Counted from the stretch's first letter, positions 23,062 through 41,566 are shown. The stretch is 64,000 bases of DNA from Candidatus Foliamicus sp. (GCA_965221325.1 OZ244880.1), one strand, 5' to 3'. Program-made: numbers and translations. Notes: generated from the sequence alone by a model not told the origin.

Positions 23062-23116
23062 CGCGCATACTGCGCAGTGCCGCGCCGCGCCGTTTCAGCG
23101 GCCTTCAAGGGGCGTT

Positions 23117-23881
23117 TCAGCCCAGGCGGACAAGCACGGGGGCGTGATCGGAGGGCCTGTCGAGCTTGCGGGGCGCCGTATCAATCCGCGACGCGCGGCA
23201 TTCGGAGGCCAGCGCTTCGGACAGCAGAATGAGGTCTATGCGCAGTCCGCGGTTGCGCCGAAACCCAGCGGCGCGGTAATCCCACCAACTGAACGAACCT
23301 TCGGGTTGCTTGAAAAGGCGAAAGCTGTCGCGCAATCCCAGGGCTTCCAGCGCCTGAAATCGAGTCCGCTCCGGCTCGCTGCAGAGGATTTTGCCGCGCC
23401 ATTCTTCCGGATCATGCACATCGCGGTCGTCGGGCGCGATATTGAAATCGCCGATCACCGCCAGCCGCGGCCAGCTCCTCAACTCTTCGCGCAGCCAGTC
23501 TGCCAGCGCCTCCAACCAGCGGAGCTTGTAGCGATAGTGCTCGTGACCCACCTCCTTGCCGTTGGGCACATAGAGATTCACCACGCGGGTGTCGCCGACC
23601 GTGGCCGCAACGGCGCGCGCCTGCGGGTCATCAAGTCCCGGAATTCCCCTGACCGCGTGCGACGCCGGGCGGCGAGTCAGCAGCGCCACGCCGTTATAGG
23701 TAGGCTGCCCGTGCGCCAGGCAGAAGTACCCCAATTCCTGAAACTCCGCGGCTGGAAAGTCCTCGTCACGGCATTTCAATTCCTGCAAACCCAGCACATC
23801 CGGGCCCCTCGTCTCCAGCCAGTCGAGTGCCTGTTCCTTGCGCACCCGCACGGAATTGACGTTCCAACTGGCGATCATCAT
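23117..23881 (-). CDS. xthA: Exodeoxyribonuclease III
   Basis: MMIASWNVNSVRVRKEQALDWL...LGLQELK and C-terminal SDHAPV are ExoIII/AP-endonuclease motifs. Internal start at 23881 preferred. Confidence 0.9.
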   Translation of the reverse strand: MMIASWNVNSVRVRKEQALDWLETRGPDVLGLQELKCRDEDFPAAEFQELGYFCLAHGQPTYNGVALLTRRPASHAVRGIPGLDDPQARAVAATVGDTRVVNLYVPNGKEVGHEHYRYKLRWLEALADWLREELRSWPRLAVIGDFNIAPDDRDVHDPEEWRGKILCSEPERTRFQALEALGLRDSFRLFKQPEGSFSWWDYRAAGFRRNRGLRIDLILLSEALASECRASRIDTAPRKLDRPSDHAPVLVRLG

Positions 23882-23906
23882 GGCCGGATACTCGGCTGCG
23901 ATGGAA

Positions 23907-24599
23907 TCAGGGACGTGGCTGGCCCATCCGGATATGCACCTCGCCCACCCGTTCCACGCCCGCGGTGACATGATCGCCGGGCTTGAGAGGCCCTACGCCG
24001 GCCGGCGTTCCGGTAAAAATGAGGTCGCCCGGCTTCAGCTCGAAATACGCCGATATCTGAGCGATCAGGTTGCGGGGTTTATGCATCATCTTCTCCAGGT
24101 CCGCTTCCTGCCTGAGCTCGCCATTGACGCTCAGCCAGATGCGGCCCTTGGCCGGGTGGCCTATGCTGGATGCCCTGCGCAGGGTGCTGACCGGCGCCGA
24201 GTAGTCGAAGCTCTTGCTTTGTTCCCAGGGTTGACCGGCTTTCCTGGCTTTGGCCTGCAAGTCGCGGCGCGTGAGGTCTATGCCCACGCCGTAGCCGTAA
24301 ACGTGGTCCAGCGCTTCCTCGGCCGCGATGTTCAAACCCCCGCCTTGCAAGGCCACGACCAGCTCCACCTCGTGGTGCAGATCCTTTGTTTGTGGGGGAA
24401 ACGGAATTTCTCCACCGCCGGGCAGTAGCGCGTCCGCCGGCTTCATGAATACGGGAGGCTGCGGAACTAGCTCCCGCTTCATCTCCTGGACGTGGTCCAG
24501 GTAGTTCCAGCCGATGCAAAAGACACGGCGCGCCGGAAAGCGCCGTTCGATTCCCTTGACCGTCAGACTGGGACGGTAATAGTCAAACAATTCCGTCAT
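23907..24599 (-). CDS. Fumarylacetoacetate hydrolase (FAH) family protein
   Basis: About 230 aa; RVFCIGWNYLDHVQE, HHEVELVVAL and GDLIFTGTPAGVGPLKPGD are FAH-fold motifs. Start at MTELFDYY. Confidence 0.8.
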   Translation of the reverse strand: MTELFDYYRPSLTVKGIERRFPARRVFCIGWNYLDHVQEMKRELVPQPPVFMKPADALLPGGGEIPFPPQTKDLHHEVELVVALQGGGLNIAAEEALDHVYGYGVGIDLTRRDLQAKARKAGQPWEQSKSFDYSAPVSTLRRASSIGHPAKGRIWLSVNGELRQEADLEKMMHKPRNLIAQISAYFELKPGDLIFTGTPAGVGPLKPGDHVTAGVERVGEVHIRMGQPRP

Positions 24600-24711
24600 A
24601 ATCAATGGCGCTTTTACTATCAGTTCCCCGCGCCGGTGGCACACTTTCCCGGATTTTTGCGGGCGGGTCAAGACACACCCGCACTCCATACCTGCAAAGC
24701 GATACTGTCTG

Positions 24712-27700: not shown

Positions 27701-27858
27701 TGACCCCGCACCAAGCCGGAAACGCTGTTGCAGTCGGTCAATCCAATTGCGGCAAGGCCCAGCTCGGCAGCCCGCGACACCATTTCTGCGGGATGTGATG
27801 CGCCGCGCAGAAAAGAGTAGTTGCTTGCTGCCGCCAGTTCGACGTAGGCCGCATTCAT
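24712..27858 (-). CDS. dnaE2: Error-prone DNA polymerase III alpha-like (DnaE2/ImuC)
   Basis: 1048 aa with an N-terminal PHP domain (YVELAAASNYSFLRGASHP). Lies directly downstream of imuA-imuB. Confidence 0.93.
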   Translation of the reverse strand: MNAAYVELAAASNYSFLRGASHPAEMVSRAAELGLAAIGLTDCNSVSGLVRGHVAAREAGIRFLPGARLKPRDGPDILCYPSDRAAWGRLCRLLTLGKRRAAKGECDFSLTELCAHAEGQLLLVLPPPHASDIPCLPRLKNAGVWKLGLAAPLCFDGGDANRLMRLASIATRQSIPMVAVADAWMHAPCRKPLADLMTCVREGVTIDAAGFRLDANAERHLRSADEMLSLYEGYEHAVTRSEEIAAGLRFSLDELRYEYPEEQAPPGYTRQEWLERLTWDSAAERYPRGIPQRVRELVQRELKLIEELDYAPYFLTIHDLVRHAREQGILCQGRGSAANSAVCFCLGITAVDPEKIDLLFERFISSDRGEPPDIDVDFEHERREEVIQYLYRRYGRERAGLTATVIHYRPRSALRETGKALGLPPAMLDTLTGQIWGREGGWPDEARIKALGLDPQHPRLKTVLALAAELVGFPRHLSQHPGGMVMTRGRLDEVAPISNAAMAGRTMLEWDKNDLDDLGMLKVDVLALGMLTCLRKCLDLLACHHDRPLTLADIPAEDPEVYDMLCRADTVGVFQVESRAQMSFLPRMRPRCFYDLVIEVAIVRPGPIQGDMVHPYLRRRHGKEPVEYPSEELRRVLDNTLGVPLFQEQAMRIAVVAAGFSPAQADALRRSMATFRNTGTVKAFREKFVAGMTGRGYSLEFAERCFSQIEGFGEYGFPESHAASFAILVYASAWFKHHYPEVFACALLNSQPMGFYAPAQIVRDAREHGVNVLPVDVNFSEVDCTLTADNGTRPALRLGLRQVRGLGAAAAERLTARREEGYLDIATLCRRTFLDKGALRYLARADAFASMGMTGRRALWEIERLPGGRPLPLFAAGGLDELPAEPSAALPSEAPGERVLRDYDALGLSLKGHPLAFCRAQLETLGYWNAEMMAEASQGDLCAAAGLVLVRQAPHSASGVVFLTLEDETGVVNVVLWPGVFERNRNTLMGSVLLGVQGEVQRENDVVHLVARRLEDLSDLLGDLTPAPIAAPHTARFTPRLSRARQAR

Positions 27859-27874
27859 GGGTCAGCCCGCGTTG

Positions 27875-29254
27875 TCAGGCAGCCAGCGCTTGAACGTACC
27901 AGCGCGGCGGCCCGCTGTCGGGCGCCTGTTTGCGGTATGCGCTAAAGCACCGCCCAAGCTCATCCTCCAACAGCCAGTATTCGCGGGCGTTTCGCTCCCC
28001 GCTGCGCCACCATTCCGGCGCTAAGCGCCGGGGTCCCTGCGCCCGCCGCAGGGTCAGCCGTTGGCGCCGCCAGCGAATCCAGGCCGGCGCACCGCCTGCC
28101 GCTGGGGCGGAAGCTTCCACGGGCTCGGCGTCTTCCAGCAACAGCAGCGGCGCGCGCATGGGCTTGCCGTTCGGTCTGAATGATGGATTCTCCGCCGGAC
28201 GCGGGTCCAGGGCGGAAATCAGCCGCCAGCGCCGTTCGGGCAGATAGCTGGCTTCCGCCACTGCAATGCGCACCGCCTCGGCTCCCAACCGGCTGCAAAG
28301 CCGATCCACGAGGCGCGCGAAATCGCCTTCCAGGTTGCCGGCGGAGGCCCCGGAAAGCCAGTCCGCCTGCTCTGCCGTTGCTTCTTCGGCATCGTAAGCA
28401 TGCAGGCTGACCGCGTCGTAGCCAACCCCGCGAGCCATGCTCGGCGGCTTCGCTTGCAGCTTTTCGTGCAGAAGCTCGGCCAGTTGCGGCGCCGGCTGAA
28501 TAAGACGCGCCGTGCGCAAACGATGCGTGAGGCATTCGCCGTCCGAGCGCAGCAGACGCAGTTCGAAGCGCCGCGAACCCATGCCCGCGGCGGACAATTG
28601 ACCGCAAATCCGAACGGCCAATTCAGCAGTCGCCGCGGCAATCGCTTGCTGCAAGACCACGGGGCTATCGAATTCCATGCGGGCCTCGAACCTGCGCGGC
28701 GGCGGCAGATAATCGAGCGGTTCGGGAGCATGGCCTGCGGCCTGCTGCAGGCGCAGAGCCGTCGCGGCGCCAAATCTGGCCTGCAGAGATTCGGGTGCAA
28801 TGCGGCTCAAGGCGCCGATCGTGTGCAGGCCCAATTCCCGCAATACGCTGCAAATTTCGGTCTCCAGCCGCAGCGCTTCAACCGGCCACGCGCCCATCGC
28901 CTCCAGCCCGCTGCCCGGCGCAAGCAGTACCACAGCTTCCGACGCGCCCCGGGTTCCGGCCCAGGCCGCGCCCGGAGTATCCGCAATGCAAACCTGCGCC
29001 GCTTCGCCCCGCCGACGCAACTCGGCCACAACCTCGCCCAACAGTTCGGATTCCCCGCCGAACAGGCCGATGGAGCCGGAAACATCCAGAAACAGGCTGT
29101 TGCCGGGGGCCAGGGCGATCTTCGGCGTAAAACGCCAGCAGTGATGCGCCAACTGCGCCAGGCGCTGCGCCAGCAACCGCGCCGCTGATTCAGCCGGCGG
29201 CGCGGATGTCGCTTGCTGGTGCAGGCGGTGCAGCCAAACGCAAACAATTCTCAT
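27875..29254 (-). CDS. imuB: Y-family-polymerase-like protein ImuB
   Basis: FLDVSGSIGLFGGE and the overall ImuB layout, positioned between imuA and dnaE2. ATG at 29254 (MRIVCVW) would overlap imuA by 65 nt, so the start is uncertain. Confidence 0.8.
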   Translation of the reverse strand: MRIVCVWLHRLHQQATSAPPAESAARLLAQRLAQLAHHCWRFTPKIALAPGNSLFLDVSGSIGLFGGESELLGEVVAELRRRGEAAQVCIADTPGAAWAGTRGASEAVVLLAPGSGLEAMGAWPVEALRLETEICSVLRELGLHTIGALSRIAPESLQARFGAATALRLQQAAGHAPEPLDYLPPPRRFEARMEFDSPVVLQQAIAAATAELAVRICGQLSAAGMGSRRFELRLLRSDGECLTHRLRTARLIQPAPQLAELLHEKLQAKPPSMARGVGYDAVSLHAYDAEEATAEQADWLSGASAGNLEGDFARLVDRLCSRLGAEAVRIAVAEASYLPERRWRLISALDPRPAENPSFRPNGKPMRAPLLLLEDAEPVEASAPAAGGAPAWIRWRRQRLTLRRAQGPRRLAPEWWRSGERNAREYWLLEDELGRCFSAYRKQAPDSGPPRWYVQALAA

Positions 29255-29918
29255 GCTCGCTCCATTCGATGTTCCATTCGCCGGGCGTCCAGCCGGGGGC
29301 CCGCTCAAGACCTATACGCCAGCTTCGCGCGCCCGGCAATTCGAATCCGCGCCAGGCCAGAGTGGAGGGCGCGCTCGGCAAGGGCTCCACGCGCCAGCGG
29401 GTGCGCGCGGAGGTGGCCTCGCGGAGCCTGGCGCCGCGCGCCAGGAAGACCCTCGACCCGCCGCGCAGGGCACGCAGCGACAAACGCCGCGAAGCGGTAA
29501 AGCCATAGTGCCGCTCCACGCCGGGCAAGCAGCCCACCACCGCCAGCAGCCCGGGGCAGTCCAGCGCTTGTTCCAGCGCCCAGAGCAGCTCCCGCTCATC
29601 GCCGGGCTCCACCAGCAGCAGATTGCGGGGGTTCAAACCGATTTCTTCGAAACCCTCGCCGCAGGGCAACCCCCAGCGGCGCGAAGATGCGCGCGTTTGC
29701 ACCCACACCAGACGGCCCGTAGAGGCGCCCGGTAATTCCGCGGCGCAACAGGCAAGCAGCGCCAGCGCGGCAGCCCGACCGCCGCTGCGCCCGCCTAGAA
29801 ACTCGTGAACTCCGGAACGCGCAAGCGTCGCAAGCGGCCAGCTTCGATCCGCTTCCGCACCCGAAACCGCCCGCAGAAGCCGGGGACGGGCGGTCAAGCG
29901 CTCCCTCCACCGGGCCAC
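29190..29918 (-). CDS. imuA: SulA/RecA-like translesion accessory protein ImuA
   Basis: GVHEF..., GRLVWVQTRA and LLWALEQALDCPGLLAVVG match the ImuA pattern. First gene of the cassette. Confidence 0.75.
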   Translation of the reverse strand: MARWRERLTARPRLLRAVSGAEADRSWPLATLARSGVHEFLGGRSGGRAAALALLACCAAELPGASTGRLVWVQTRASSRRWGLPCGEGFEEIGLNPRNLLLVEPGDERELLWALEQALDCPGLLAVVGCLPGVERHYGFTASRRLSLRALRGGSRVFLARGARLREATSARTRWRVEPLPSAPSTLAWRGFELPGARSWRIGLERAPGWTPGEWNIEWSEHENCLRLAAPPAPASDIRAAG

Positions 29919-30802
29919 GGCTCAATCCCGACGGCCTGCTCGCTCCAATCCCAAAGGCGCTTCATTTCCGCGCGGTCGTGGGAGGCGGGAGAACTCTCCT
30001 TGGTGGCCAGGTGCTCCCAATACTTGCCGGTTTCCTCCGCAATCGTCGGCGAAACCGCCAGGTACACATAGGTCCTCACCGAGCGTTCCGGATCGTTGAA
30101 GAACGGGCGCAGCAGCTTGCAGCCCAGACGGAACAGCCCGCGCATATTGTCGTAAACCGTCGTCTTGATGAAGTAGCCCGGAGAAATCGCGTTGACGGTT
30201 ACCCCGCTGCCTTCCAGACGGCGGGCCATTTCATAGGTTGTGAGGGTCATGGCCAGCTTGGACTGCTGGTAGGCGGCGAAGGCGCCGCGGTTGGAAACGC
30301 TGCGCCGCCCCCAGGGCTTCCTGATTTCCATGTCGTCCCAGTTCAGCGGCCCGCCGGCCTTGTGCCCGTCCGACGAAATCATGATCACGCGCGCCGGCGC
30401 CGACTCCTTCATGCGCTCCAGCAGCAGACGGGTGAGCAGGAAATGCCCGAGATGATGCACGGCCATGTGTTGCTCGAACCCATCCTCGCTCAGCCGATAG
30501 ACGGGATCGACGACTCCGGCGTTGTTGATCAGCACGTGCAGTTGGCCGTAGTGCTCAAGCACGTGCCGGGCAAGCGCGCGCACTTGCGTAAACGAGGAGA
30601 TGTCGCAATGCACGAATTCCAGCGCATCGTTGCCGGTCAACTCCACGATCTCGTCACGCGCCTGACGCCCTTCCTCGTCCTTGATATCCACCAGGATCAG
30701 CCGAGCGCCCAGGCTGGCCAGTTCGCGCGCGGCAATCCTTCCCATGCCGCGGGCGGTGCCGGTAATCAGGCAGGTTCTGTTACGCATGCTCTGTTCAATC
30801 AT
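29894..30802 (-). CDS. Short-chain dehydrogenase/reductase (SDR)
   Basis: TGTARGMGR (TGxxxGxG), NNAG and YQQSK (YxxxK). Confidence 0.85.
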   Translation of the reverse strand: MIEQSMRNRTCLITGTARGMGRIAARELASLGARLILVDIKDEEGRQARDEIVELTGNDALEFVHCDISSFTQVRALARHVLEHYGQLHVLINNAGVVDPVYRLSEDGFEQHMAVHHLGHFLLTRLLLERMKESAPARVIMISSDGHKAGGPLNWDDMEIRKPWGRRSVSNRGAFAAYQQSKLAMTLTTYEMARRLEGSGVTVNAISPGYFIKTTVYDNMRGLFRLGCKLLRPFFNDPERSVRTYVYLAVSPTIAEETGKYWEHLATKESSPASHDRAEMKRLWDWSEQAVGIEPWPGGGSA

Positions 30803-30854: not shown

Positions 30855-30880
30855 CCGCTTGCTTCTCACTCTGCAAGCGG
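30855..30880. promoter_or_regulatory. Dyad CCGCTTGC-N10-GCAAGCGG in the divergent SDR/gor intergenic region
   Basis: Perfect 8-bp inverted arms read from the sequence. A second small dyad, GGCAT-N7-ATGCC, follows immediately. Confidence 0.25.
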
Positions 30881-30948
30881 CATTGGCCCGATGCCGGGAA
30901 GCGCCAGGCAGGTGTAGGAGAGTCCTGGAGACGTTATCCTTCCGGCCT

Positions 30949-32292
30949 ATGCGGGAATTCGACCTGGTTGTTGTGGGTGGCGGCAGCGGTGGCCTGGCGA
31001 CCGCTCAACGCGCGGCCGAGCGCGGCGCCCGGGTGGCGCTGATCGAGTCGGGACGTTTGGGGGGCACTTGCGTCAACCGCGGCTGCGTACCCAAGAAGGT
31101 CATGTGGCACGCCGCGGAACTGGCGCGCCAGCTTGCCGACTCCCGCGAGTACGGGTTCCATTTGTCCCTGGAGAGCCACGACTGGTCCGAACTGGTGCGC
31201 CGCCGGGAAAGCTACATCCGCCGTCTGAACGGAATCTACGTAGAAAACCTTCGCCGCCGGGGCGTGGAATATGTGGACGGATTCGCAGCATTTTCCGGCG
31301 CGCGGACTATTGCCGCGAACGGCGAGGAGTACGCCGCGCCGCGCATCCTGATCGCCACCGGGGGCGCGCCCGTGATTCCGGAGATTCCCGGGGCGGAACT
31401 GGGCATTACGTCCGACGATTTCTTCGCGCTGGAAAGCTGTCCGCGCAGGGCAGCCGTGGTGGGCGCCGGATATATCGCCGTGGAACTGGCCGGGATTCTG
31501 CGTGGACTGGGCTCGGAGGTAACGCTGCACCTGCGCCGCAAATCGGTGCTGCGGCGTTTCGACGAGATACTCCAACAGGCCTGTCTTGAGGGACTTGCCG
31601 ACGCGGGCGTGCGCATTGAGACGGATTTTTCGCCGACAGCCGTCGCCCGCAGCCAGAACGGACTGCACGTTACATCTTCCCGAGGCGCAAACAGCGGACC
31701 TTTCGATACGCTGCTTTGGGCCGTGGGCAGGCGGCCGCTAACCGACGATCTCGACTTGGAGACGCCTGGCGTGGCCCGCGATGCGCGCGGCGCGATCAAG
31801 GTGGACCAGTGGCAGGAAACCACCGCCCGTGGCGTGTTCGCCCTGGGCGACGTGACCGGTCGTCACGAGCTTACCCCGGTGGCGATCGCCGCCGGCCGAC
31901 GCTGGGCGGATCGGCAGTTCGGCGGCATGTCCGAACGCCGCATGGACTACACAAACATCCCGACGGTGGTGTTTGCGCATCCGCCACTGGGCTCGGTAGG
32001 GCTTACCGAGGCCGAAGCGCGCGACGCACATGGCGATACGGTGCGCTGTTACCGCTCCGAGTTCGTGCCGCTCTACTACGGCATCGCTGCCCACAAACCC
32101 AAGGCGCGCATGAAGCTGGTCACGGTGGGCGAGGAGCAGCGCGTGGTGGGATGCCACGTGGCCGGCCCGGGCGCGGACGAGATGCTGCAGGGTTTTGCCG
32201 TGGCCATCAGGATGGGCGCCCGCAAAGCAGACCTCGACGACACCGTCGCCATTCATCCCACCGCCGCCGAAGAACTCGTGACCATGCGCTAA
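30949..32292 (+). CDS. gor: Glutathione-disulfide reductase
   Basis: FAD motif VVGGGSGGLA, redox-active GGTCVNRGCVPKK, C-terminal HPTAAEELVTMR. Start at MREFDLVVVG. Confidence 0.9.
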   Translation: MREFDLVVVGGGSGGLATAQRAAERGARVALIESGRLGGTCVNRGCVPKKVMWHAAELARQLADSREYGFHLSLESHDWSELVRRRESYIRRLNGIYVENLRRRGVEYVDGFAAFSGARTIAANGEEYAAPRILIATGGAPVIPEIPGAELGITSDDFFALESCPRRAAVVGAGYIAVELAGILRGLGSEVTLHLRRKSVLRRFDEILQQACLEGLADAGVRIETDFSPTAVARSQNGLHVTSSRGANSGPFDTLLWAVGRRPLTDDLDLETPGVARDARGAIKVDQWQETTARGVFALGDVTGRHELTPVAIAAGRRWADRQFGGMSERRMDYTNIPTVVFAHPPLGSVGLTEAEARDAHGDTVRCYRSEFVPLYYGIAAHKPKARMKLVTVGEEQRVVGCHVAGPGADEMLQGFAVAIRMGARKADLDDTVAIHPTAAEELVTMR

Positions 32293-32391
32293 CCCGGATG
32301 AAGCCTTCGGGCATACCGGTGCGGTCCAGACCTGCTGACCGGTGACTGTGAGGGACCTCGGTCGCTGCCCCTGTCTGCGGCACGAAGCCGC

Positions 32392-32427
32392 CGCTATAGT
32401 CGCTCAAAGCTTCGGTGGCGCTATAGT
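32392..32427. repeat. Direct repeat CGCTATAGT x2 (27-bp spacing) upstream of the 481-aa ORF
   Basis: Copies at 32392-32400 and 32419-32427. Each contains a TATAGT -10-like hexamer. Confidence 0.3.
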
Positions 32428-32462
32428 GGCCTGTACGGAGCCGATCAGCTGGAGTCCAAGTG

Positions 32463-33908
32463 ATGTTCATAGCACGAAATGCTGGTGAGGTGCTGGCGGA
32501 ACACACTGGAGGAAAGACGGAGGACCCCTTCGGCATGCAAACAGGAGTTCGTCCTCTGTGGGCGATGCAGGTCGGCAAGCCGCATCCAACGGGTATCAAG
32601 CTAAACGTCTTGGTTCGCTTGCCACCAAGCGACAAAATCGACAATCAGATTCGCGGAGTCGTCGACGTACCGGGCCACCCTTTTGGAGACGAAGAGAGAT
32701 GCTACTTGGCAAAAGTACTTATCGAGGCTGTTGACGATATTCCGCAATGCAAATTTGAGTATCAAGTAGTGGACTGGGTGGCGACTGAAGGGGGCAAGGG
32801 CATCCAAGTCGCCCAGTGCCGCCCAATAGCGGTCTCAGTTGGTCGAGATTTCGTTAACTTAAGGGTGTTTGAGCCACCAGACATTCAAGAGCCTCTTGAG
32901 AACAGCCAGATAAGTGCAGAGCAGCAAGACGAGTGGATTCGCGAATACGCTGCTAACAGGTACTGTCGGTACCTGACGAGGCAGGAGTTGAACCAGCGTT
33001 TTCAAGATCTGTTGGTGAACATCCAAGTTCTCACACCATCCGGACGATTGGGGTTGAGCACCGACGAGACTTGGTACCGCCTGCTGCAGCACGTTATTGA
33101 CGAGATGCAATTCAGGGGTGAGCCGCCAACCGCTTCTAACCATCACCCTCATGTGCAAAGGTCCCGACCGTTTTTCGACGGTGAATTCTGCCGGAAGGCG
33201 GCGAAAGTGGTTGCTGCGAGTTCCACTGATCAAGACGTGCTCGTAAAGTACGGCAAGCGCGAGCACATGTATTCACTATTCCAGAGGGGCATCGTGTATC
33301 TGAACCCTGCCACCTGGTACAGCGCGTCCGACCACAATCAGGCTATCGAAGACAACGAACTGGCTATTGGCTTCAAGGGTGGATTCATAAGGACCACCCG
33401 TCCTCTGCAGTTTTACGACAGGAACAATGCGCCACCGATGGAAATTGCCGCCCGCGCCGTAGGATTTCGAACGATATACGAGCTTCCAGAGTTGCATAGC
33501 GACCAATTTTGCACTGCCACCATACAAGCACCTACGGACTACTGGATGTTCTGCATGGCCGATATTCTCGACCCAAGGCTCTTCGCCGACTTCCAAGCCG
33601 ATTGCTGCCTCATCATCAAGCGTAGGCCGTTCGCGGAACGCCTGTTGCGGACTGCCGCGGAGCAGCTGACCAATGAAACGTGCTACTTCGACCGCGTCCA
33701 GTATGTGGATCCTCTAGGTGCTTGGCCTGCTAGCACACACGTAACGAATTCCATCCCGCTCCACATGACAAAGGTGTTTCGTTACGCCTATCAGAGGGAG
33801 GCCCGCTTCGCCATTGTCCCCAATGAAGGCCGAGATGACCTGCAACCAAGAGAAATCGAAGTCGGATCAATCTCGGATATTGCCGATCTCGTGCCGCTCA
33901 TGGGCTAA
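32463..33908 (+). CDS. Hypothetical 481-aa protein; C-terminal half weakly DUF2971-like
   Basis: GGAG lies 8 nt before ATG 32463. Intact long ORF in AT-richer DNA. The C-terminal segment LVKYGKREHMYSLFQRGIVYLNPATWYS...EDNE ... YWMFCMAD ... VFRYAYQREARFAIVP resembles the DUF2971 layout, recognised by eye only. Confidence 0.6.
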   Translation: MFIARNAGEVLAEHTGGKTEDPFGMQTGVRPLWAMQVGKPHPTGIKLNVLVRLPPSDKIDNQIRGVVDVPGHPFGDEERCYLAKVLIEAVDDIPQCKFEYQVVDWVATEGGKGIQVAQCRPIAVSVGRDFVNLRVFEPPDIQEPLENSQISAEQQDEWIREYAANRYCRYLTRQELNQRFQDLLVNIQVLTPSGRLGLSTDETWYRLLQHVIDEMQFRGEPPTASNHHPHVQRSRPFFDGEFCRKAAKVVAASSTDQDVLVKYGKREHMYSLFQRGIVYLNPATWYSASDHNQAIEDNELAIGFKGGFIRTTRPLQFYDRNNAPPMEIAARAVGFRTIYELPELHSDQFCTATIQAPTDYWMFCMADILDPRLFADFQADCCLIIKRRPFAERLLRTAAEQLTNETCYFDRVQYVDPLGAWPASTHVTNSIPLHMTKVFRYAYQREARFAIVPNEGRDDLQPREIEVGSISDIADLVPLMG

Positions 33909-34338
33909 TAGGGCGCATACGCCATACATGACCGGGCTGGTGCTGCGCCTCGCGCAATTCACCCGTGCCCCGGTCAATGACCTCGTCGTTTGGGCCGCGC
34001 ATTCCACGAACAGCTTCTCGCCCGCACGTTAGTCTTGGCGCATGACCATGTCCAGCCGGCCTAGCCAGGCGCGATTTTGCTCGCAAAACCAACTGTATTG
34101 GTAGCCGTCGCGGCACGACGACCGATGGATACTCCTGCCGCAGCAGGAACAACTCCGCACCCTTGCTCTGGAGTCAGTGGAAAGCTTCCAATGGACTGGG
34201 TGACCGCTTTCGATCGAAATCAGTGGCAAACTTCATCTGAAATACGCAGGCCCGCCGAAGCTGGCTAGTCCCAGATGTAGTGAACCCGCGCTGCTTCCTG
34301 CCCTTTTGGGCCTGACGTATACTGTCCGCAAGAACAAG

Positions 34339-34632
34339 ATGCCCCAAGCTCGGGCGATACGCCTAACCGCGCCGGATGGCGGGGCGTTATACAAGAGGTC
34401 ATCGACGCGGCGCGACGCCGCAAGGGGGACCGATGCCCATTGGACTGAAGGTCGAGGAACGATCGACCCTATCGCCAGTGCCGTTCGCATCGCGCGGACC
34501 GCGCCCGGCGAAGAAGAACAGCTTGTCGATACGTGCAAGCGCAAGGGAGGCAGGTCCCGAACGCAGAAGATGGGCCTTGAGCGACGGCGGGAAATCGCGA
34601 GAGCCGCCGCCGCATGGCGGGCCAGTACTTGA
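34339..34632 (+). CDS. Small basic protein with C-terminal GGRSRTQKMGLERRREIARAAAAW motif (hypothetical)
   Basis: ATG 34339 follows a TATACT hexamer. The C-terminal motif resembles the GG-K-x-R-x3-L-x2-E-R-x-EIARKAA-x-ARW tails of small bacterial proteins. Stop lies 13 nt before the next ORF. No clear RBS. Confidence 0.3.
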   Translation: MPQARAIRLTAPDGGALYKRSSTRRDAARGTDAHWTEGRGTIDPIASAVRIARTAPGEEEQLVDTCKRKGGRSRTQKMGLERRREIARAAAAWRAST

Positions 34633-34645
34633 CCGGCGCATAGCT

Positions 34646-34921
34646 ATGAAATCCGATAATTGGGCCATCATGGGCGCCGAGGTCGCCATCTTCGCCTTGA
34701 ATATCGCGGCTATGACGGTGCTGACGCTGAGTACAAGCAACCGGCTCGACTGGCTTGAGGCGTCGGTCAACAGCCGCCTGGACTCCATCGACAGACGGCT
34801 GGATTGCTTCAAGGTCGAGCTTGTTCACCTACGCAATGATGTCGGCACGCTCGCCGAGCGTGTCTCACATATCGAAGGGCGGCTGGCCATAGATCGAGCA
34901 GGCGGGCGCGCCGCACCGTGA
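34646..34921 (+). CDS. Small membrane-anchored coiled-coil protein (hypothetical)
   Basis: MKSDNWAIMGAEVAIFALNIAAMTVLTLS (TM) is followed by heptad-like NRLDWLEASVNSRLDSIDRRLDCFKVELVHLRNDVGTLAERVSHIEGRL. Stop overlaps the methyltransferase GTG (GTGA at 34918-34921). No clear RBS. Confidence 0.35.
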   Translation: MKSDNWAIMGAEVAIFALNIAAMTVLTLSTSNRLDWLEASVNSRLDSIDRRLDCFKVELVHLRNDVGTLAERVSHIEGRLAIDRAGGRAAP

Positions 34922-36516
34922 AGTTTCAACCGGACTCGCTGTACTGCGGGGATTGTCTCGACATCATGCGAGCGTGGCCCGACGGCTGCATCGATCTCTG
35001 CTATCTCGACCCGCCGTTCAACTCCAAGACGGACTACAACATCCTGTTCGGGCAGGATCGGGCGCGGACCAATGGCGGCAAGTTCGCCCAATTTGTCGCG
35101 TTCGAGGATACATGGATGTGGGACGATGCCGCTCAGGACCGCGTCGATTCCATTGAGCGCGCAGTCGCGCATCCGGCGCATAAGATCGTCAAGGGTCTGC
35201 GCTACGCGATTGGCGACTGCGGCATGCTCGCCTATCTCTCGTACATGGCCGAGCGCCTGGTCGAAATTAGGCGCGTTCTGAAGCCGACAGGGAGCGTCTA
35301 CCTGCATTGCGACCCCACTGCGAGTCATTACCTCAAAGCCGCATTGGATGGCGTGTTCGGAGCCAAGTGCTTCCTGAACGAAGTAAGCTGGCGACGCACA
35401 ACGACGAAGGGCGACTATCGACAGGGCGCGCTCAACTGGCCGCGCGTACGCGATGTGCTGCTGCATTACGCAAGCGATCCGCGCGGCGGCGGGCGAATGT
35501 TCCGGCAGCCGTTCACCGAATACGATCCCGCCTACATCAAGAGTCACTACTCCATGGTCGAGCCGGACACCGGTCGGCGTTATCGGTTGGACAATTTGAC
35601 CGCGCCAGGCGCGGGCTCACGTGGGCACCCGAAGTACGAACTCATGGGCGTCGAGCGGCACTGGCGATACAACGCCGAGAAAATGGCCGATCTGATCGCG
35701 GCGGGTCGCGTCGTCCAGACCGCGCCCGGTCGGGTACCAGCCTACAAACGATACCTCGACGAAATGCCCGGCGTGGCGGTGGGCGACGACTGGAGCGACA
35801 TCAAACCGATCAATTCTCAGGCAAAGGAACGCTTAGGTTATCCGACTCAAAAGCCCGAGGCGCTGCTGAGGCGTGTCATAGAGGCATCCAGCAACGAAGG
35901 GGACATCGTTCTGGACCCGTTCGCTGGATGTGGCACCACGGTGGTTGCGGCCCGCAATCTTAAGCGTCGTTTCGTCGGAATTGACATCTCGCACTTCGCT
36001 ATCGACATCGTTCGGGAGCGCCGATTGCAGGACAAAAGCATCCCGATCAACGGCTTCCCGGTGGATCTGCCGAGCGCCGAGATGTTGGCGCGGGAGGTCC
36101 CGTTCGAGTTCGAGAAATGGGCGATCACACGGATACCCGGCATGGTGCCGAACGCCGTGCAGATTGGCGATGGTGGTATCGACGGTCGCGGCATAATCCA
36201 CGGAGACGGCTCGCTTGTGCTCGCCCAGGTGAAGGGTGGGCGCTCATTCCAGCTCGGTCACGTCCGGGACTTCCGACACGTTCTAACGCGCGAGCAAGCC
36301 GCCTGCGGCGTGTTCACGACGCTCCGACCTGTCACGTCGCCCAAGGCGAAGGCGGAAGCGAAAGGCGCCGGATATCTCAAGTTCGGTGCGAACCGCTATC
36401 CGGCGGCGCAGTTGTGGTCGATTCAGGACTATTTTCAGGAGCGTCTCCCGATGCTCCCACCTTTGGCCGACCCGTACACCGGGAAGGCCATGCAACTAGA
36501 CATGCTAGCGCATTAG
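34918..36516 (+). CDS. Beta-class N6-adenine/N4-cytosine DNA methyltransferase fused to a C-terminal Mrr-like PD-(D/E)xK nuclease domain
   Basis: Motif IV DPPFN at the N-terminus (GDCLDIMRAWPDGCIDLCYLDPPFN) and motif I GDIVLDPFAGCGTTVVAA after a long insert give beta-class order. C-terminal FEFEKWAI...GDGGIDGRGII...LAQVKGG...GVFTT matches the Mrr_cat pattern. Confidence 0.85.
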   Translation: MKFQPDSLYCGDCLDIMRAWPDGCIDLCYLDPPFNSKTDYNILFGQDRARTNGGKFAQFVAFEDTWMWDDAAQDRVDSIERAVAHPAHKIVKGLRYAIGDCGMLAYLSYMAERLVEIRRVLKPTGSVYLHCDPTASHYLKAALDGVFGAKCFLNEVSWRRTTTKGDYRQGALNWPRVRDVLLHYASDPRGGGRMFRQPFTEYDPAYIKSHYSMVEPDTGRRYRLDNLTAPGAGSRGHPKYELMGVERHWRYNAEKMADLIAAGRVVQTAPGRVPAYKRYLDEMPGVAVGDDWSDIKPINSQAKERLGYPTQKPEALLRRVIEASSNEGDIVLDPFAGCGTTVVAARNLKRRFVGIDISHFAIDIVRERRLQDKSIPINGFPVDLPSAEMLAREVPFEFEKWAITRIPGMVPNAVQIGDGGIDGRGIIHGDGSLVLAQVKGGRSFQLGHVRDFRHVLTREQAACGVFTTLRPVTSPKAKAEAKGAGYLKFGANRYPAAQLWSIQDYFQERLPMLPPLADPYTGKAMQLDMLAH

Positions 36517-36566
36517 ACTGGCTAAAATGCCTGACATATATTGTTGATTGCGCGCCAATTGACGGC

Positions 36567-36879
36567 ATGAACAAGCTATCCGAAACCAAGCGCACCACAA
36601 CCTGACGATGCGCAGGGGATGCGCCGATTTATCCGCCTCACCAACGCGTTCAGCAAGCGAGTCGAGAAGCACACGACGATGCGGAGCCTCTACTTCGTGC
36701 ATTACAATTTCTGCCGCTTTCACCAAACGCTGAAGGTCGCGCCCGCGATGTCGGCCGGACTGAACACCACCTTGCGAGACTACGAATGGATCGTGGTTCT
36801 GATCGACGCCGCAGCGCCGAAGGCTCGGAAGACCGGCCCGAAGCCCGGAAGCGGCGGACGGCACCGTAAAGCAAACTGA
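36567..36879 (+). pseudogene. Internally deleted DDE transposase remnant (IS1-like C-terminus)
   Basis: MNKLSETKRTTT-stop (36567-36605) resembles the N-terminus of a transposase family. ORF 36619..36879 (RLTNAFSKRVEKHTTMRSLYFVHYNFCRFHQTLKVAPAMSAGL) matches only the last ~85 aa. The catalytic core is missing. Confidence 0.6.
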
Positions 36880-37484
36880 TGCACTATCCGCGTAAGCGTT
36901 TCGGAACCGGATTTGAACGCTAGCGTACGCACTTGGTCGCGCTCTTGGCCGGAGGCATACTGGAAGCGCCAAGTGTCGTTGCGTAACCAGTGAGGAACTC
37001 GGGTATCCACTTTCGGCATCCGGGATGGAGTCTACAGCCGCTGATTGGGTCGCACGGGTCGGTGCTTCCACTTTAGCGGGCGCGAGCGTATTTCATGGGC
37101 GTGCGCATTCTTCAGCTGCCATTAACAGCACCGCTTCGCGTCCCGTGCGCTGGCGCCGGGCGAGATTCGGTCCATATTCGGAAAGACGCTCAGACATCGG
37201 AACGTGCGGAGCACGGCCCGTTACACCCGCGATCCGGTCAACCCACCTGCGCGCTTGGCCAAGAGCCTTTGGGTGGATCTAGCGAGTGACGGCGAGTTGG
37301 CGTATTGCAGGGGGCTGCATCTTCGCTGCCTAGACTCCGTACCGCCGATGGCGAAAGGGACGCTGATAGTAGTAGAGCAGCCTTATGCAGCCAGCACTCA
37401 CTAAACAAATAATACCAGTGGTTGACGGGGACTGGGCTGGCGAGCGGGGCACGGGCATCTAAATTTTATCCTCCCGCAATCTTG

Positions 37485-38381
37485 TCATGCCGGCCACCAA
37501 TCACTCTTCGATTTGACGGTCAAAGAAAGGACTACGTCATCATCTCCCTTAACGCTTGAGATAAACCAGTCGTATCGTGGTGCACTCTTCTCAACCAAAG
37601 GACACACGTAGAATGCAAAAAATGTTGCCTTGTTTTCTGCTCCCTGAACGGCGGTCAGGCTTGCGTCGTCTTCGATTAGGTCTACGCAATCTTCTGTGAG
37701 TCCGCCAAATGCGGGAGATTTGATCAGTTCCGCTAGCACATATTTCAAGCCAGGTTCGTGTACAAAGCTCATTACTTTTGGATCAACTTTCACCCCAGAG
37801 ACCGTACGGACACGGCAGATGAATATGCCTTTTGGTTGAATGGCTTCGCCTAAAGATACGCAGTATTGATTGTCTGGGATGTCCTCCTCCATTCGATTCT
37901 GCGGACGAAGGAAGGCTTCACTTCGACTGATGTGAATCCAACCAAGCATCTGCAGAAAAATCTCAGGTTTGTTGTTCAATCTCGTAGGCACAAAGCCGTG
38001 GAGGTTTTTGGCGCTACTCACGAAGGGGTTCTCGGTGCGGCCCGGCAAATCCGTTCCGGAAATATGGAAGTTCCCGTCGGCATGCCAGTGCATTTTCACA
38101 TCTTGCGTGTTGGCTTGCATCATGGTACGCCAAATGTTGTTGCCTAAATATTCGATCGCTATGCCTCCCAGCGAAGCGATATGGTTGTTGACCAAAAATT
38201 CATATTTGGACGGTTGCCCGGCAAGATCCCTCTTTTCGATGAAGCATCGTTTGTTGGGAGCATCGACGTATTTCGGCGGCGCCATTACCGCGAGGCTTTC
38301 ACCTTGATCGCCGATGACAAATCTAAACGCCTTGAACGTGTGTCCCTCATGTTCAAATGCGATAACGCCATTCGTTTCCAT
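37485..38381 (-). CDS. Hypothetical 298-aa protein, no recognisable family
   Basis: GGAAGGA RBS 8 nt before the ATG. Intact ORF in the most AT-rich DNA of the window. No motif I can name. Confidence 0.55.
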   Translation of the reverse strand: METNGVIAFEHEGHTFKAFRFVIGDQGESLAVMAPPKYVDAPNKRCFIEKRDLAGQPSKYEFLVNNHIASLGGIAIEYLGNNIWRTMMQANTQDVKMHWHADGNFHISGTDLPGRTENPFVSSAKNLHGFVPTRLNNKPEIFLQMLGWIHISRSEAFLRPQNRMEEDIPDNQYCVSLGEAIQPKGIFICRVRTVSGVKVDPKVMSFVHEPGLKYVLAELIKSPAFGGLTEDCVDLIEDDASLTAVQGAENKATFFAFYVCPLVEKSAPRYDWFISSVKGDDDVVLSLTVKSKSDWWPA

Positions 38382-38569
38382 TTGCGAATCCTTCCGACTA
38401 AACCGTATCGGGCTCTTTGGAAGCCGATTGCATCTGAGAATCTGGAGCCATGAGACAGTGTAACAGTTATTCCTCGGAGGAACGGGAACGGGTGGTCCAG
38501 CCTGTCGTATGCGATGCAGACGTGGAGCATGTCCTCGGAAAATTCAAACTGCGCGCTGAACCACTGTAG

Positions 38570-38870
38570 AGATTCCAGGACTCAGTGCGTGAGCTGTCGT
38601 TGACGCCGTCCAAAGCTAAGGCAAACCTGAGCTACCTCAACAGCGCCGTTCTGTCCGCCCTGCGTGATCTGCGCGTTGGCTCGGTCGCCCGAGTGTCACC
38701 GGCATTGCCTTAATCTCCCGCACTTACGGGCGCAGAAAGCCGAGCGGCGAACCTGAGTCATGAGATGCTGCGCAACATGTTCGGCTACGCCATCGCGTGG
38801 GGCCCTTGGCGAGAAGCCGTCGGCAACCCAATTGAGGGCATCGGACACTTCAACCGCGCCTCGTTCAATT
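38570..38870 (+). pseudogene. Tyrosine-integrase N-terminal (SAM-like domain) fragment with in-frame stop
   Basis: One frame reads RFQDSVRELSLTPSKAKANLSYLNSAVLSALRDLRVGSVARVSPALP*SPALTGAESRAANLSHEMLRNMFGYAIAWGPWREAVGNPIEGIGHF. The ..LPALG..v..vtr.dv.. and ..AN..l..l..mF..A..WG....NP...i..f pattern is integrase-like. TAA at 38711-38713. Similarity ends near 38870 and no catalytic domain follows. Confidence 0.45.
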
Positions 38871-39607
38871 CGGTTGACCAGAGCTCTCGCAAGCTCCTTG
38901 TTAAGGTACTCACTGGGCGTAGAGGGCATTCCAACATTTTCTGGTGTGTAGCTGGCAACTCTGCGGATATTCTCGAAATCCACGCCATCAAAATGGTTGC
39001 CTAAAATGCGATAGACCTCATTTTCTGGAATGTGCTTTACTGTGCTTACCCACTCTATAGGAAACCCAAGCATACTAACGATGTCGGACAGTTTAAGGTC
39101 GAGGAACTTGAATCCTCCTGTTGCGACAGTGCGTCTTGGACAGGAATGATTTGGAAAAGCGTTTGCACACTTGAGGACAATACGCGCAAGCTTACCGAGA
39201 TGCTCAAGGCAACAATCAACAACATCTCGGTGGAGAAGCGCTTTAGGAACCGCCTGTTTATTTCCAGCAAATCTATAGCTCCAAAGCAAATTCCCTTCAC
39301 AATCTTTACTCGTTGTCCCAACCAAGGAAACTCGTCCTTCTTTCTGCGAAAAATTCCTCAACTCCAAAAAATACTTCATTCCGGCATCTTCCCTCATTTT
39401 CTTTCGGCGTTTTACCCACCATTCCTTGAATCCAGGGACCCTTCGCATTTCTTTCTGAAGCAAAAAAGTTACACTTCGGGCAGCCGATAGAAATGCGTTA
39501 AATTCATATGTGAAGTTCTCCCCATTCAGCGCTCGTAATCTGCGCGCAAAATTTTCGGCTTCGAGAATTTTTTCTTCAACCAACAAAAGGCTGTTTAACT
39601 GGGCCAT
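38696..39607 (-). CDS. Hypothetical ~303-aa protein; the 3' ~58 codons run antisense through the integrase remnant
   Basis: ATG 39605-39607 follows a purine-rich stretch (the ORF-track start at 39628 is TTG). The N-terminal helical region has FNAFLSAARSVTFLLQKE and LELRNFSQKEG. The AT-rich body ends near 38880, but the reading frame continues into GC-rich DNA to the stop at 38696. Confidence 0.5.
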   Translation of the reverse strand: MAQLNSLLLVEEKILEAENFARRLRALNGENFTYEFNAFLSAARSVTFLLQKEMRRVPGFKEWWVKRRKKMREDAGMKYFLELRNFSQKEGRVSLVGTTSKDCEGNLLWSYRFAGNKQAVPKALLHRDVVDCCLEHLGKLARIVLKCANAFPNHSCPRRTVATGGFKFLDLKLSDIVSMLGFPIEWVSTVKHIPENEVYRILGNHFDGVDFENIRRVASYTPENVGMPSTPSEYLNKELARALVNRIERGAVEVSDALNWVADGFSPRAPRDGVAEHVAQHLMTQVRRSAFCARKCGRLRQCR

Positions 39608-39760
39608 TCTGCTCTCTTCCTCGATCAATCCCAGAAGACTTTATCGTCGTATGGAGTGTTCCGGGAATAGTTGACACCATCGCGCCTCAAAGTGAGGTTG
39701 CTTCAAAGGCTTCGGGGAGTGACACCGCCAAGATGGCTATTGTCCATGTCGTCTCCGGCG

Positions 39761-40213
39761 TCAGTAGCCCATGTCCAGAACCTGGGCATCTGCGGCCAGT
39801 TTGTCAAGCGCCCGGCGCCGGCCCGCATCCGTCGTGTTCTTGTAGCGCATGATGGCGTCGGAATGGACGCGGCGGTGCGTTCCGACCTTGTGAAAGGGGA
39901 TGGTGCCCGATTCGAGAAGCTTGACGAGGAAGGGGCGCGAGACATTGAGTAAGTCGGCCGCCTGCTGGGTGGTTAGCTTGGTGTCCTTGCGAATCACTGC
40001 GACCGAGCTGCCAGACGCTATACCCTCAAGAGCTTCCAGCAGCATGTCGCCGGCCGATGCCGGCAGCTTGATTGCCTCGTCTCCGTGAGCGTCGCTGACA
40101 AGGAGCGATGGGGCGGGGTCCGCGCCCAGCAAAGCGCGCAGGCGTTCACTTGATTCTTGTGCGATCTCGGCATCCGCTTTCGAAGGAAGGATTGAGTGTG
40201 TCTGCATGTTCAT
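39761..40213 (-). CDS. Excisionase-family (HTH_17/MerR-like) DNA-binding protein, antitoxin-type
   Basis: LTTQQAADLLNVSRPFLVKLLESGTIPFHKVGTHRRVHSDAIMRYK is the excisionase-type HTH. The 150-aa layout ending LDKLAADAQVLDMGY resembles antitoxins paired with PIN toxins. Confidence 0.65.
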   Translation of the reverse strand: MNMQTHSILPSKADAEIAQESSERLRALLGADPAPSLLVSDAHGDEAIKLPASAGDMLLEALEGIASGSSVAVIRKDTKLTTQQAADLLNVSRPFLVKLLESGTIPFHKVGTHRRVHSDAIMRYKNTTDAGRRRALDKLAADAQVLDMGY

Positions 40214-40260
40214 TATTCATCCCCGCGCCTCTGCGCGGCTTCACGGCCACCCTAGCGGCT

Positions 40261-40281
40261 GATATTGCTAAACGCAATATC
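40261..40281. promoter_or_regulatory. Dyad GATATTGC-N5-GCAATATC, candidate operator upstream of the HTH gene
   Basis: Perfect 8-bp inverted arms centred about 58 bp upstream of the start codon at 40213. Confidence 0.35.
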
Positions 40282-40321
40282 CGAAAAGCCTGGCACGATT
40301 GGAATAGCAGATGACGACCAA

Positions 40322-41134
40322 TTAGCCGCCGCGCGGACTCAGCAGTTCCTGGGTGTCGGGGCGCTGTCCATGCCAGATTGCAAAGCTTTCGGCCGCTTGT
40401 TCCACCAGCATTCCCCATCCGTCGTGGATCGAACGTGCCTTTCCCTGGCGCGCCCAGGCCGCAAAGGCCTCGGCTGCCGGCCCGTAGGCCAGGTCGATGC
40501 AATGCGCGCCTGCGGCCGCCGAATGATCAATCGTAGGCGCGGTGCCCGTCATGCCGGCGGAACTGGCATTGATCACCAGATCTGCGCGCGGCGGAGTCGC
40601 CGCGCCCTGTTCGGCCACCTGGATGGCGCCCAGGGGTGCGAAGCGGCGCGCCAGGTCCAGTGCGCGGTCGCGGGTGCGGTTGACCAGCGTGATCGAGGCG
40701 ATGTTGGCTTCGAACAAGGCGGGGATCAAGCCACGCGCAGCGCCGCCGGCTCCGAGCAGCAGCAGCGTTGCGCCCGCGAGTTCGAGGCCGAGATTGCAGC
40801 GCAAGTGGCGGAGCAGGCCGGAGCCGTCGGTGTTGTCGCCATGAATGCGATCCTCATCACCGACTGTGAGGGTGTTGGCAGCTCCCGCCAGCCGGGCCCC
40901 GGAACCGAGGGAGTTGCTGAGTGCCGCCGCCTCCTCCTTGAGCGGCACGGTGATGTTGCATCCCCGCCCGCCTTCCTGCGCGAAGCGGCTCACTGCTTCG
41001 GCCAATAAGCCTTGGCGGACCTCCACGCGCCGGTATTCGAGGGCAATGCCGAGTTGCGATGCAAAGCGGCGATGAATTTCGGGCGAGCGGCTGTGACCGA
41101 TCGGATGGCCCATTACGCAGAAGATTGCCGGCAT
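40322..41134 (-). CDS. aroE: Shikimate dehydrogenase
   Basis: FCVMGHPIGHSRSPEIH N-terminal motif, NITVPLKE, GAGGAARG NADP site, 270 aa. Confidence 0.9.
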   Translation of the reverse strand: MPAIFCVMGHPIGHSRSPEIHRRFASQLGIALEYRRVEVRQGLLAEAVSRFAQEGGRGCNITVPLKEEAAALSNSLGSGARLAGAANTLTVGDEDRIHGDNTDGSGLLRHLRCNLGLELAGATLLLLGAGGAARGLIPALFEANIASITLVNRTRDRALDLARRFAPLGAIQVAEQGAATPPRADLVINASSAGMTGTAPTIDHSAAAGAHCIDLAYGPAAEAFAAWARQGKARSIHDGWGMLVEQAAESFAIWHGQRPDTQELLSPRGG

Positions 41135-41253: not shown

Positions 41254-41338
41254 ACTAGGCTTATCGTGCGATGGGTTCGCACTATCAGCCATGAAAATCC
41301 TCTTCGGAGGGGAAAAGCCACAAACTGGAGAAATTTCT

Positions 41339-41566
41339 ATGACCAGTCCTGAACGCAAACTTCTTGCTCTTGCCCTTAGCGCCGCCTTGGCGGCCGGTGC
41401 TGCCGGAACCGCTGCTGCGGCCAGCGTTGGCACCTTCGAGGCCGGTGGAACGGCCCCGACGGTATTCGACGGCCATGGCGGCGACGATGAAGGCAGTTGC
41501 GGCGAAGGCAGTTGCGGCGACGACGACGGTGACGAGGAAGAGGAAGAAGAGGAAGAAGAGAGCTAG
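41339..41566 (+). CDS. Small secreted Cys-containing acidic peptide (EGSCGEGSCG motif, poly-Glu tail)
   Basis: GGAG lies 9 nt before ATG 41339. Sec-type signal MTSPERKLLALALSAALAAGAAGTAAAA. Mature part is SVGTFEAGGTAPTVFDGHGGDDEGSCGEGSCGDDDGDEEEEEEEEES. Strong terminator downstream. Confidence 0.6.
   Translation: MTSPERKLLALALSAALAAGAAGTAAAASVGTFEAGGTAPTVFDGHGGDDEGSCGEGSCGDDDGDEEEEEEEEES

Follow-up and report, generated by a model that had tools for sequence, protein, structure and literature searches.

A decayed accessory island with single-gene cargo between gor and aroE of Candidatus Foliamicus

Introduction

Between the convergent genes gor and aroE of an uncultured gammaproteobacterium that NCBI labels Candidatus Foliamicus sp. 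(GCA_965221325.1 OZ244880.1), a contig of 2.45 Mb holds 8,029 bp of patchwork DNA whose genes are missing from the same site in five related genomes. We analysed this segment within a stretch of 64,000 nucleotides of the contig (the window), and conclude, with a probability of roughly three in four, that it is a lineage-specific accessory island, built by several independent insertions into a short convergent spacer and then eroded by deletions. Its mobility genes and its toxin-antitoxin pair are dead, and four genes are intact: a solitary DNA methyltransferase gene, a gene for a protein of 91 amino acids (aa), and two genes, here called A and B, that stand outside known families. A third cargo gene, C, is related to part of the Ea47 protein of phage lambda. 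The island is real but of an ordinary accessory kind, common and unsurprising. Three uncharacterised cargo families can be drawn from it for screens of defence genes or mobile elements, and it marks the gor/aroE spacer, and the area around gor, as a hotspot of gene exchange in this lineage.

Results and discussion

The two genes that frame the island were identified by Pfam as gor, of the glutathione-disulfide reductase type, and aroE, which encodes shikimate dehydrogenase (Table 1). Their stop codons delimit the segment 32293-40321, confirming the bracket of about 8 kb that had been described in an earlier reading of the DNA (the sequence-only reading). With AroE as the query and one genome per species (GTDB), we retrieved five relatives (L013-L017), each as a 20-kb locus. 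Their proteins are close to those of the window (AroE 73-75%, Gor 79-82%, Tag 81-84% and Sua5 73-77% aa identity), and the gene order sua5-tag-aroE-gor is kept in five of five. The stop codons of gor and aroE lie 5-66 bp apart in L013, L015, L016 and L017 and 318 bp apart in L014. None of these 20-kb loci contains A, B, C, the methyltransferase gene or the helix-turn-helix (HTH) gene of the island. Because gor and aroE adjoin and the island genes are missing in all five relatives, the island is an insertion specific to this lineage. This is the opposite of conserved synteny with the same gene set, which the sequence-only reading had named as the outcome that would count against it.

The base composition of the segment also sets it apart. 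It has 56.3% G+C against 64-65% for the 20 kb on each side (500-nt windows outside the island: mean 64.3%, standard deviation 3.5), and within it blocks of 44-54% alternate sharply with blocks of 59-62%. The compositional patchwork noted previously was reproduced in every 60-nt line that had been sampled: 41.7% G+C at 32701, 40% at 37921, 50% at 38881 and 40% at 39001, compared with 61.7% at 20041 and 63.3% at 35041. The contrast extends to G+C at third codon positions (GC3), where A, B and C fall below the range of the host genes and the methyltransferase and HTH genes are host-like. A, B and C are foreign by G+C.

Table 1. Features of the gor-aroE interval, with base composition and the basis of each assignment
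Feature	Coordinates	Strand	Length	G+C	GC3	Basis or remark
gor (left conserved flank)	30859-32292	+				Pyr_redox_2 3.8e-63, Pyr_redox_dim 7.9e-33 (Pfam)
Gene A, solo-gene family	32460-33908	+	482 aa	54%	0.62	Core = residues ~150-480
Segment between A and B	33909-37484			59-62%	0.75 (methyltransferase)	
IS21-family remnant (istA fragment and upstream end of element)	33943-34249	-				blastn against L014
Predicted membrane/coiled-coil protein	34646-34921	+	91 aa			Open reading frame (ORF); annotated as WP_446831228.1 (exact product)
Beta-class N6/N4 DNA methyltransferase with C-terminal Mrr-like PD-(D/E)xK domain	34918-36516	+	532 aa			Pfam
IS1-family transposase remnant	36567-36879	+				tblastn; N-terminal part by eye
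Probable tyrosine-recombinase C-terminal (box II) remnant	37135-37284	+				Weak tblastx; stop codons just upstream
Gene B, near-orphan family	37485-38381	-	298 aa	49%	0.54	
Spacer replacing native 3' end of gene C	38382-38860	.		56-62%		
Foreign read-through tail of C	38696-38860	-	Last ~54 codons	62%		
Gene C, Ea47-N-module protein	38696-39607	-	310 aa (303 from annotated start)	45% (core)	0.44 (core)	Native part 38861-39607
HTH_17 (excisionase-family) antitoxin, PIN toxin gene missing	39761-40213	-	150 aa	61%	0.72	Pfam and NCBIfam
aroE (right conserved flank)	40322-41134	-				Shikimate_dh_N 1.6e-21 (Pfam)
Host genes					0.71-0.80	

Scattered between the cargo genes are the remains of mobile elements. 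An internally deleted transposase had been recognised before, and it proved to be an IS1-family remnant: what is left is about 12 codons of the start (36567-36605) and the final 83 codons (36619-36879), some 200 codons between them having been lost. Its C-terminal part is 60% identical to residues 215-290 of an annotated Hoeflea IS1-family transposase of 293 residues (tblastn); the likeness at the N-terminus was found by eye (MNKLSETKR in the window, MANVLDTSKR in Hoeflea). Two stretches had been thought to hold no convincing ORF, and both turned out to be occupied. The first, 33909-34338, contains an IS21-family remnant that matches the sister genome L014 at 79% over 233 nt (7774-8002) and at 83% over 81 nt (8377-8457). 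About 375 nt of the L014 element are deleted internally from the window copy, which also carries stops and frameshifts. In L014 itself the IS21 element is intact, with an istA ORF at 6733-8274 (rve and Mu-transpos_C_2 domains) followed by istB (IstB_IS21, 7.5e-75). Unlike live IS21 and IS1 elements, the window copies are dead, internally deleted and stop-bearing, and we recognised no terminal inverted repeats at either remnant.

The second stretch, 36880-37484, holds what is probably the C-terminal end of a tyrosine recombinase, with a box II-like sequence (FASRALAPGE...LRHRNVRSTARYTR). A single tblastx match (E 1.5e-4, 57% over 30 aa) connects it to a fragment at the locus L039, and that fragment can be aligned to residues 291-339 of an integrase annotated as Phage_integrase by Pfam. 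Direct searches of the window fragment against Pfam, against phages by tblastn and against the PDB were all negative. We call the remnant probable only, on weak evidence; stop codons lie just upstream of it. We also considered a non-coding RNA in the ORF-free stretches and rejected it, as no tRNA or tmRNA gene and no Rfam match was found in these stretches or anywhere else in the window.

The HTH gene near aroE matches HTH_17 (2.8e-12) and TIGR01764 (5.7e-16). Over its full 150 aa, the product is 50% identical to the antitoxins of type II HTH_17-PIN pairs on Phaeobacter and Paracoccus plasmids, whose stop codons overlap a PIN-domain gene. In the window the overlapping PIN gene is gone, and the low-G+C cassette C starts about 130 bp downstream instead. 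A tblastn search with the Phaeobacter PIN protein gave a best E of 3 anywhere in the island. Because no PIN remnant was found there, the gene encodes an orphan antitoxin, in keeping with the earlier description of an antitoxin-type HTH gene without a toxin. It also matches the 60-residue PADLOC profile mad1 (4e-8) through the shared HTH_17 domain only, and PADLOC detected no mad gene of the MADS system beyond this HTH match.

This debris (the IS21, IS1 and recombinase remnants and the antitoxin without PIN gene), together with a gene C cut at residue 256 and the alternating G+C, is why we regard the island as a mosaic of repeated insertion and deletion. The sequence-only reading had proposed the same history, and it is supported.

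The methyltransferase in the middle of the island does carry the fused Mrr-like domain that had been noticed earlier. N6_N4_Mtase is matched over its full profile (3.3e-38) and Mrr_cat at 5.9e-5 (Pfam), with further matches to PADLOC MTase_II (1.7e-53) and to CcrM (6pbd, 1.1e-21). The catalytic motifs DPPF and FxGxG-type (DPFAGCGTT) are kept in the alignment. Full-length homologues with 35-45% identity, annotated as DNA methyltransferases, reside on plasmids of Microbacterium, Mesorhizobium, Bradyrhizobium and Rhizobium. Each stands alone there, near genes for partition, relaxase or toxin-antitoxin functions, and has no conserved partner. The window copy likewise has no separate nuclease gene alongside it, and with the same two domains it resembles these solitary beta-class enzymes of plasmids (the structural class of CcrM, M.RsrI and M.MboIIA). 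As a member of a solitary plasmid family without a partner nuclease, it gives no evidence that a restriction system is active here. The Mrr-like domain retains the invariant GDxGIDG...VKGG, and at the (E/Q)xK position it reads Q-V-K, in contrast to S-V-K in three homologues. Because the E/Q is replaced by S in those three, the predicted nuclease activity of the domain is uncertain.

The window copy differs from the plasmid genes in one more respect, namely a translationally coupled membrane gene upstream that was not seen beside three plasmid homologues. Its stop overlaps the methyltransferase start by 4 nt. The predicted 91-aa product has a single hydrophobic helix (AIMGAEVAIFALNIAAMTVLTL, read from the sequence) and a coiled-coil-like tail, and it has no family match in PHROGs or PADLOC.

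Three further ORFs had been described as intact and as belonging to no recognisable family. All three exist, and A and B are intact, but C is truncated and falls into PF26900. Of these, family A is the best and most useful lead: it is widespread, intact here and confidently folded, and it is unmatched in Pfam, PADLOC, NCBIfam, the PDB and BFVD. Its PHROG match is below threshold (E 0.073). Homologues number 131 in a word-index search, 223 in JGI metagenomes, where they are spread over many contigs, and 4 on IMG/VR contigs. Most are about 310 aa long and cover residues ~150-480 of the window protein, the N-terminal beta domain of ~150 residues being restricted to the clade nearest to it. The AlphaFold2 model of A (pLDDT 89.1, pTM 0.87) found nothing better in Foldseek than E 0.68 against the PDB and E 0.38 against BFVD, suggesting that the predicted fold has no match in either, and searches of the PDB with sequence profiles gave nothing credible. 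Two candidate assignments were rejected. A homeodomain, suggested by a match of the A1 profile to engrailed (E 1.5e-4), was treated as an artefact of a target that is a tandem construct, each of whose domains scores only E 0.5-1.2. A kinship with DUF2971, suggested by an 'NDxxE' motif, was unsupported, as none of 55 family members has a Pfam match even at E <= 1.

We surveyed the neighbourhoods of family A by calling ORFs in 62 loci and clustering the resulting 575 proteins. There is no conserved partner among them, the most frequent neighbour family occurring in at most 3 of the 62 loci. The 150 nearest neighbours are a mixture of integrases, transposases, AbiEii, Hypoth_Ymh, HEPN, type I S subunits, SIR2, ArdC, phage tail proteins and metabolic genes. 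Around the closest homologues we found TIR and AAA_16 proteins, a NACHT protein and many transposases (TIR/STAND neighbours).

Some individual A loci have arrangements of their own. In three genomes (L004-L006:7241-7990), the gene for a 249-aa HTH_3 (XRE) protein ends 10 nt before the A homologue and may be its regulator; this gene is present neither in the window nor at most other A loci. At L007:7396-10099, and also at L008, an A homologue lies between two HU genes that share 76-78% nt identity. At L039:3432-5128, no more than ~70 nt separate a full-length A homologue (38% identity, N-terminal domain included) from a truncated tyrosine-recombinase gene downstream. That gene is the closest match to the recombinase remnant of the window, a hint that integrases of this type may once have moved together with A-type genes.

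Gene B belongs to a far smaller family. When 1.84 billion representative proteins were searched exhaustively with HMMER, its only relatives were P0122 (65%), P0243 (37%) and P0244 (32%), all of which share the motif WHxDGNFHISG with the window protein. Two long proteins also matched weakly (E about 1e-7), in 8 and 13 short stretches, and these matches were taken to be repeat artefacts. No match to B was found in Pfam, PADLOC or the PDB. The relatives sit in unrelated contexts, P0122 being flanked by the hsdR gene of a type I restriction-modification system and by a DEAD/UvrD helicase of 1455-1715 aa. At L120:7131-9246 (also at L119), a B homologue forms a single-gene insertion with a 300-nt direct repeat on each side; the two repeats are 94% identical and duplicate the junction of DUF6635 and DinB genes. 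Such long duplications around relatives of A and B hint that a circle with a copy of the target was inserted by a single crossover, and they could mark a way of moving for which the cassette needs no recombinase gene of its own. None like those at L120 and L007 was seen in the window.

Gene C has 279 homologues. The window protein (P0123), like all others among the matches listed, carries PF26900 (Phage_lambda_Ea47), an assignment that comes from the precomputed Pfam annotation. Compared with lambda Ea47 itself, C matches residues 27-99 with an hhalign probability of 96.6% (E 5e-10, 72 columns) and a BLASTP E of 6e-8. By these alignments the kinship is real but confined to the N-terminal helical module of ~72 residues. 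Ea47, an accessory protein of the lambda b region, is 410 aa long, in contrast to ~250-275 aa for native members of the C family, and the two show no likeness past the module. Neither is essential, and each is cargo found close to integration modules and nucleases. Judged by titles and abstracts, the top-ranked literature mentioning Ea47 does not deal with its function.

The copy of C in the window is not intact. It is 64% identical to P0124 over residues 8-256 only, similarity ending at position 38860, and it is short of ~14 native residues. The AlphaFold2 model has a pLDDT of 86.8 that drops below 65 past residue 250, and its confident part has no fold match in the PDB. Because homology stops at residue 256 and the tail is encoded by 62% G+C DNA and modelled with low confidence, we conclude that the 3' end of the gene has been replaced by unrelated DNA. 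The spacer that has taken its place has no match in Pfam, PHROGs, or plasmid blastn or tblastn searches; a by-eye likeness to the N-terminal part of an integrase was rejected on these negatives.

Relatives of C adjoin integrases, insertion sequences or nucleases. The nuclease genes recur: in Mesorhizobium (L010-L012:8001-10725) the Ea47-like gene stands before an Mrr_cat gene and then a DUF7662-HNH gene, and in lambda (L121, 22686-26973) ea47 comes after ea31 (HNH) and ea59 (AAA ATPase). An Ea47-like gene and a nuclease may thus form a two-gene module, of which the window would hold a decapitated copy. The recurrent pairing could help to explain an old puzzle in the lambda b region. At L128-L131 (e.g. 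L128:5873-8561) there is a compact module consisting of an integrase, an Ea47-like gene and an overlapping gene for a 260-aa protein with CxxC...H...CxxC. We also asked whether C and B form an operon or a conserved pair and rejected the idea, since the L009 genes downstream of C are unlike B and B homologues never adjoin Ea47-like genes.

In other genomes, members of families A, B and C were mostly met as lone genes, in neighbourhoods that are variable or rich in mobile elements or restriction genes, and the loci surveyed showed no conserved partner. There is no sign that the three form one system in the island, because A has no partner in 62 loci, the three genes differ in G+C, and mobile-element debris lies between them. 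The question is then what each might do on its own. One answer is that the segment is a working defence island, in which at least one of the three genes would by itself be an anti-phage system not yet described, sensing infection to kill or arrest the cell, or attacking phage nucleic acid. We consider this conceivable and rather unlikely. In its favour, A and B are intact and each has a Shine-Dalgarno-like sequence in front of it, all three genes are foreign by G+C, and the neighbours of their relatives are suggestive: the B homologue lies between a type I hsdR and a giant DEAD/UvrD helicase, and A homologues occur by TIR and AAA_16, NACHT, AbiEii, SIR2, HEPN and type I S genes. But many housekeeping genes and plain mobile-element genes are also found beside A homologues, C is truncated here, we recognised no catalytic motif or known effector fold, and PADLOC matched none of A, B and C, their relatives or the 91-aa protein.

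The segment can also be compared with known defence islands and accessory hotspots between core genes. Like them, it occupies a conserved site that lacks it in relatives, and it has foreign G+C, decayed mobility genes, a gene of restriction-modification type, remains of a toxin-antitoxin pair and hypothetical genes with relatives close to defence genes. It differs in being small and largely decayed, with no tRNA gene or att site and no complete known system: PADLOC matched only the methyltransferase and, generically, the HTH gene to mad1, where a defence island would contain at least two recognisable anti-phage systems. The segment resembles a defence island in character, as the sequence-only reading had described, and relatives of B and C lie beside restriction-modification genes and large helicases and those of A among defence genes, but it holds no complete known system. 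The suggestion of that reading that the unassigned ORFs are where an undescribed system might lie is neither supported nor excluded, and a defence role for A, B or C would follow by association with such neighbours only.

A broader proposal concerns the families themselves, and we hold it as doubtful. Family A could be a novel family of single-gene accessory or defence proteins with a core of ~310 aa and no solved or viral fold counterpart, spreading solo through phages, integrative elements and variable regions of many phyla; and A, B and C may be single-gene units without a recognised adjoining recombinase gene, perhaps inserting with hundreds of bp of duplicated target, as at L120 and L007.

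In the history that we favour for the island as a whole, the scaffold of host-like G+C would be what is left of a plasmid or integrative element that had integrated here. It holds the IS21, IS1 and recombinase remnants, the toxin-less HTH_17 antitoxin, the 91-aa membrane gene and the plasmid-type solitary methyltransferase. A, B and C would have entered separately, as single genes from lower-G+C donors, at the left edge of the island and within the scaffold. The methyltransferase probably still methylates DNA, and the plasmid position of its relatives suggests that it would do so as an orphan or self-protecting enzyme and not in classical restriction. The antitoxin would be a leftover and C is probably crippled, leaving A and B as intact cargo, most plausibly with accessory roles in conflicts between host and mobile elements.

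Several points weigh against this history of stepwise insertion. The island has no flanking direct repeats beyond chance matches of 14-29 nt, and no tRNA gene, att-like site or direct repeat marks any of its junctions. The recombinase remnant depends on a single weak chain of similarity. Because a single genome carries the island, the order of insertion events cannot be reconstructed, and the mosaic could have formed in a donor and arrived in one step. The working state of the island genes, finally, is a prediction from their sequence.

One rival reading is that the whole 8 kb came once, already mosaic, from a plasmid, an integrative and conjugative element or a prophage, with the recombinase and the excisionase-family HTH gene as its own integration module, later inactivated. 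A recombinase remnant and an excisionase-family HTH gene are indeed there, homologues of the methyltransferase and of the HTH-PIN pair are typical of plasmids, and small modules of integrase, Ea47-like gene and 260-aa gene are known elsewhere. We nevertheless judge it distinctly improbable, because the HTH protein is a full-length homologue of PIN-linked antitoxins and not of excisionases acting beside an integrase, the IS21 remnant is ~80% identical in nt sequence to the element of a sister genome, suggesting local insertion, and the island combines three very different G+C classes. Nor does it look like a site-specific integrative element, having no att repeats, no tRNA gene and an integrase only as a weak remnant.

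That the island or parts of it are an assembly chimera, in which fragments of co-resident bacteria were joined in the contig of a metagenome-assembled genome, is scarcely credible: the nearest relatives of the three low-G+C genes (59-66% identity) are in ENA assemblies whose accession ranges are similar, and A and B homologues both occur in sample ERZ25072670, but these identities are far too low for cross-assembly, the contig of 2.45 Mb has conserved synteny on both sides, and the junctions fall at sensible breakpoints (insertion-sequence remnants and a gene truncation).

Insertion of separate pieces into one region is the reading we prefer, and the same neighbourhood is unstable in the relatives too, with insertions and a palindromic spacer in L014. 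There, an intact IS21 (istA, istB) and a GPP34-domain gene are inserted between sua5 and tag (L014:4950-8470), and the 318-bp spacer between aroE and gor (L014:10799-11115) is filled with long palindromes. On the other side of gor, about 6 kb of the window (24712-30802) are lineage-specific as well: nothing corresponds to them at the syntenic position of the five related genomes, in which sequence matching window positions ~23000-24680 directly adjoins gor. By eye only, the genes of this segment can be named imuA (242 aa), imuB (477 aa) and dnaE2 (1048 aa), followed by a short-chain dehydrogenase gene.

Two other ORFs of the window deserve mention. A second low-G+C patch (44-50% in 500-nt windows) at 62725-63519 on the + strand encodes a 264-aa multi-pass membrane protein, for which NCBIfam gave no match. 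Between aroE and tag, an ORF at 41291-41566 (+) was considered as an HvfA-type precursor of a ribosomally synthesized and post-translationally modified peptide (RiPP) and rejected on the absence of an NCBIfam match. It has a signal-peptide-like N-terminus and an acidic tail with EGSCGEGSCG and then a glutamate run, and is reminiscent of Cys-rich RiPP or metallophore precursors.

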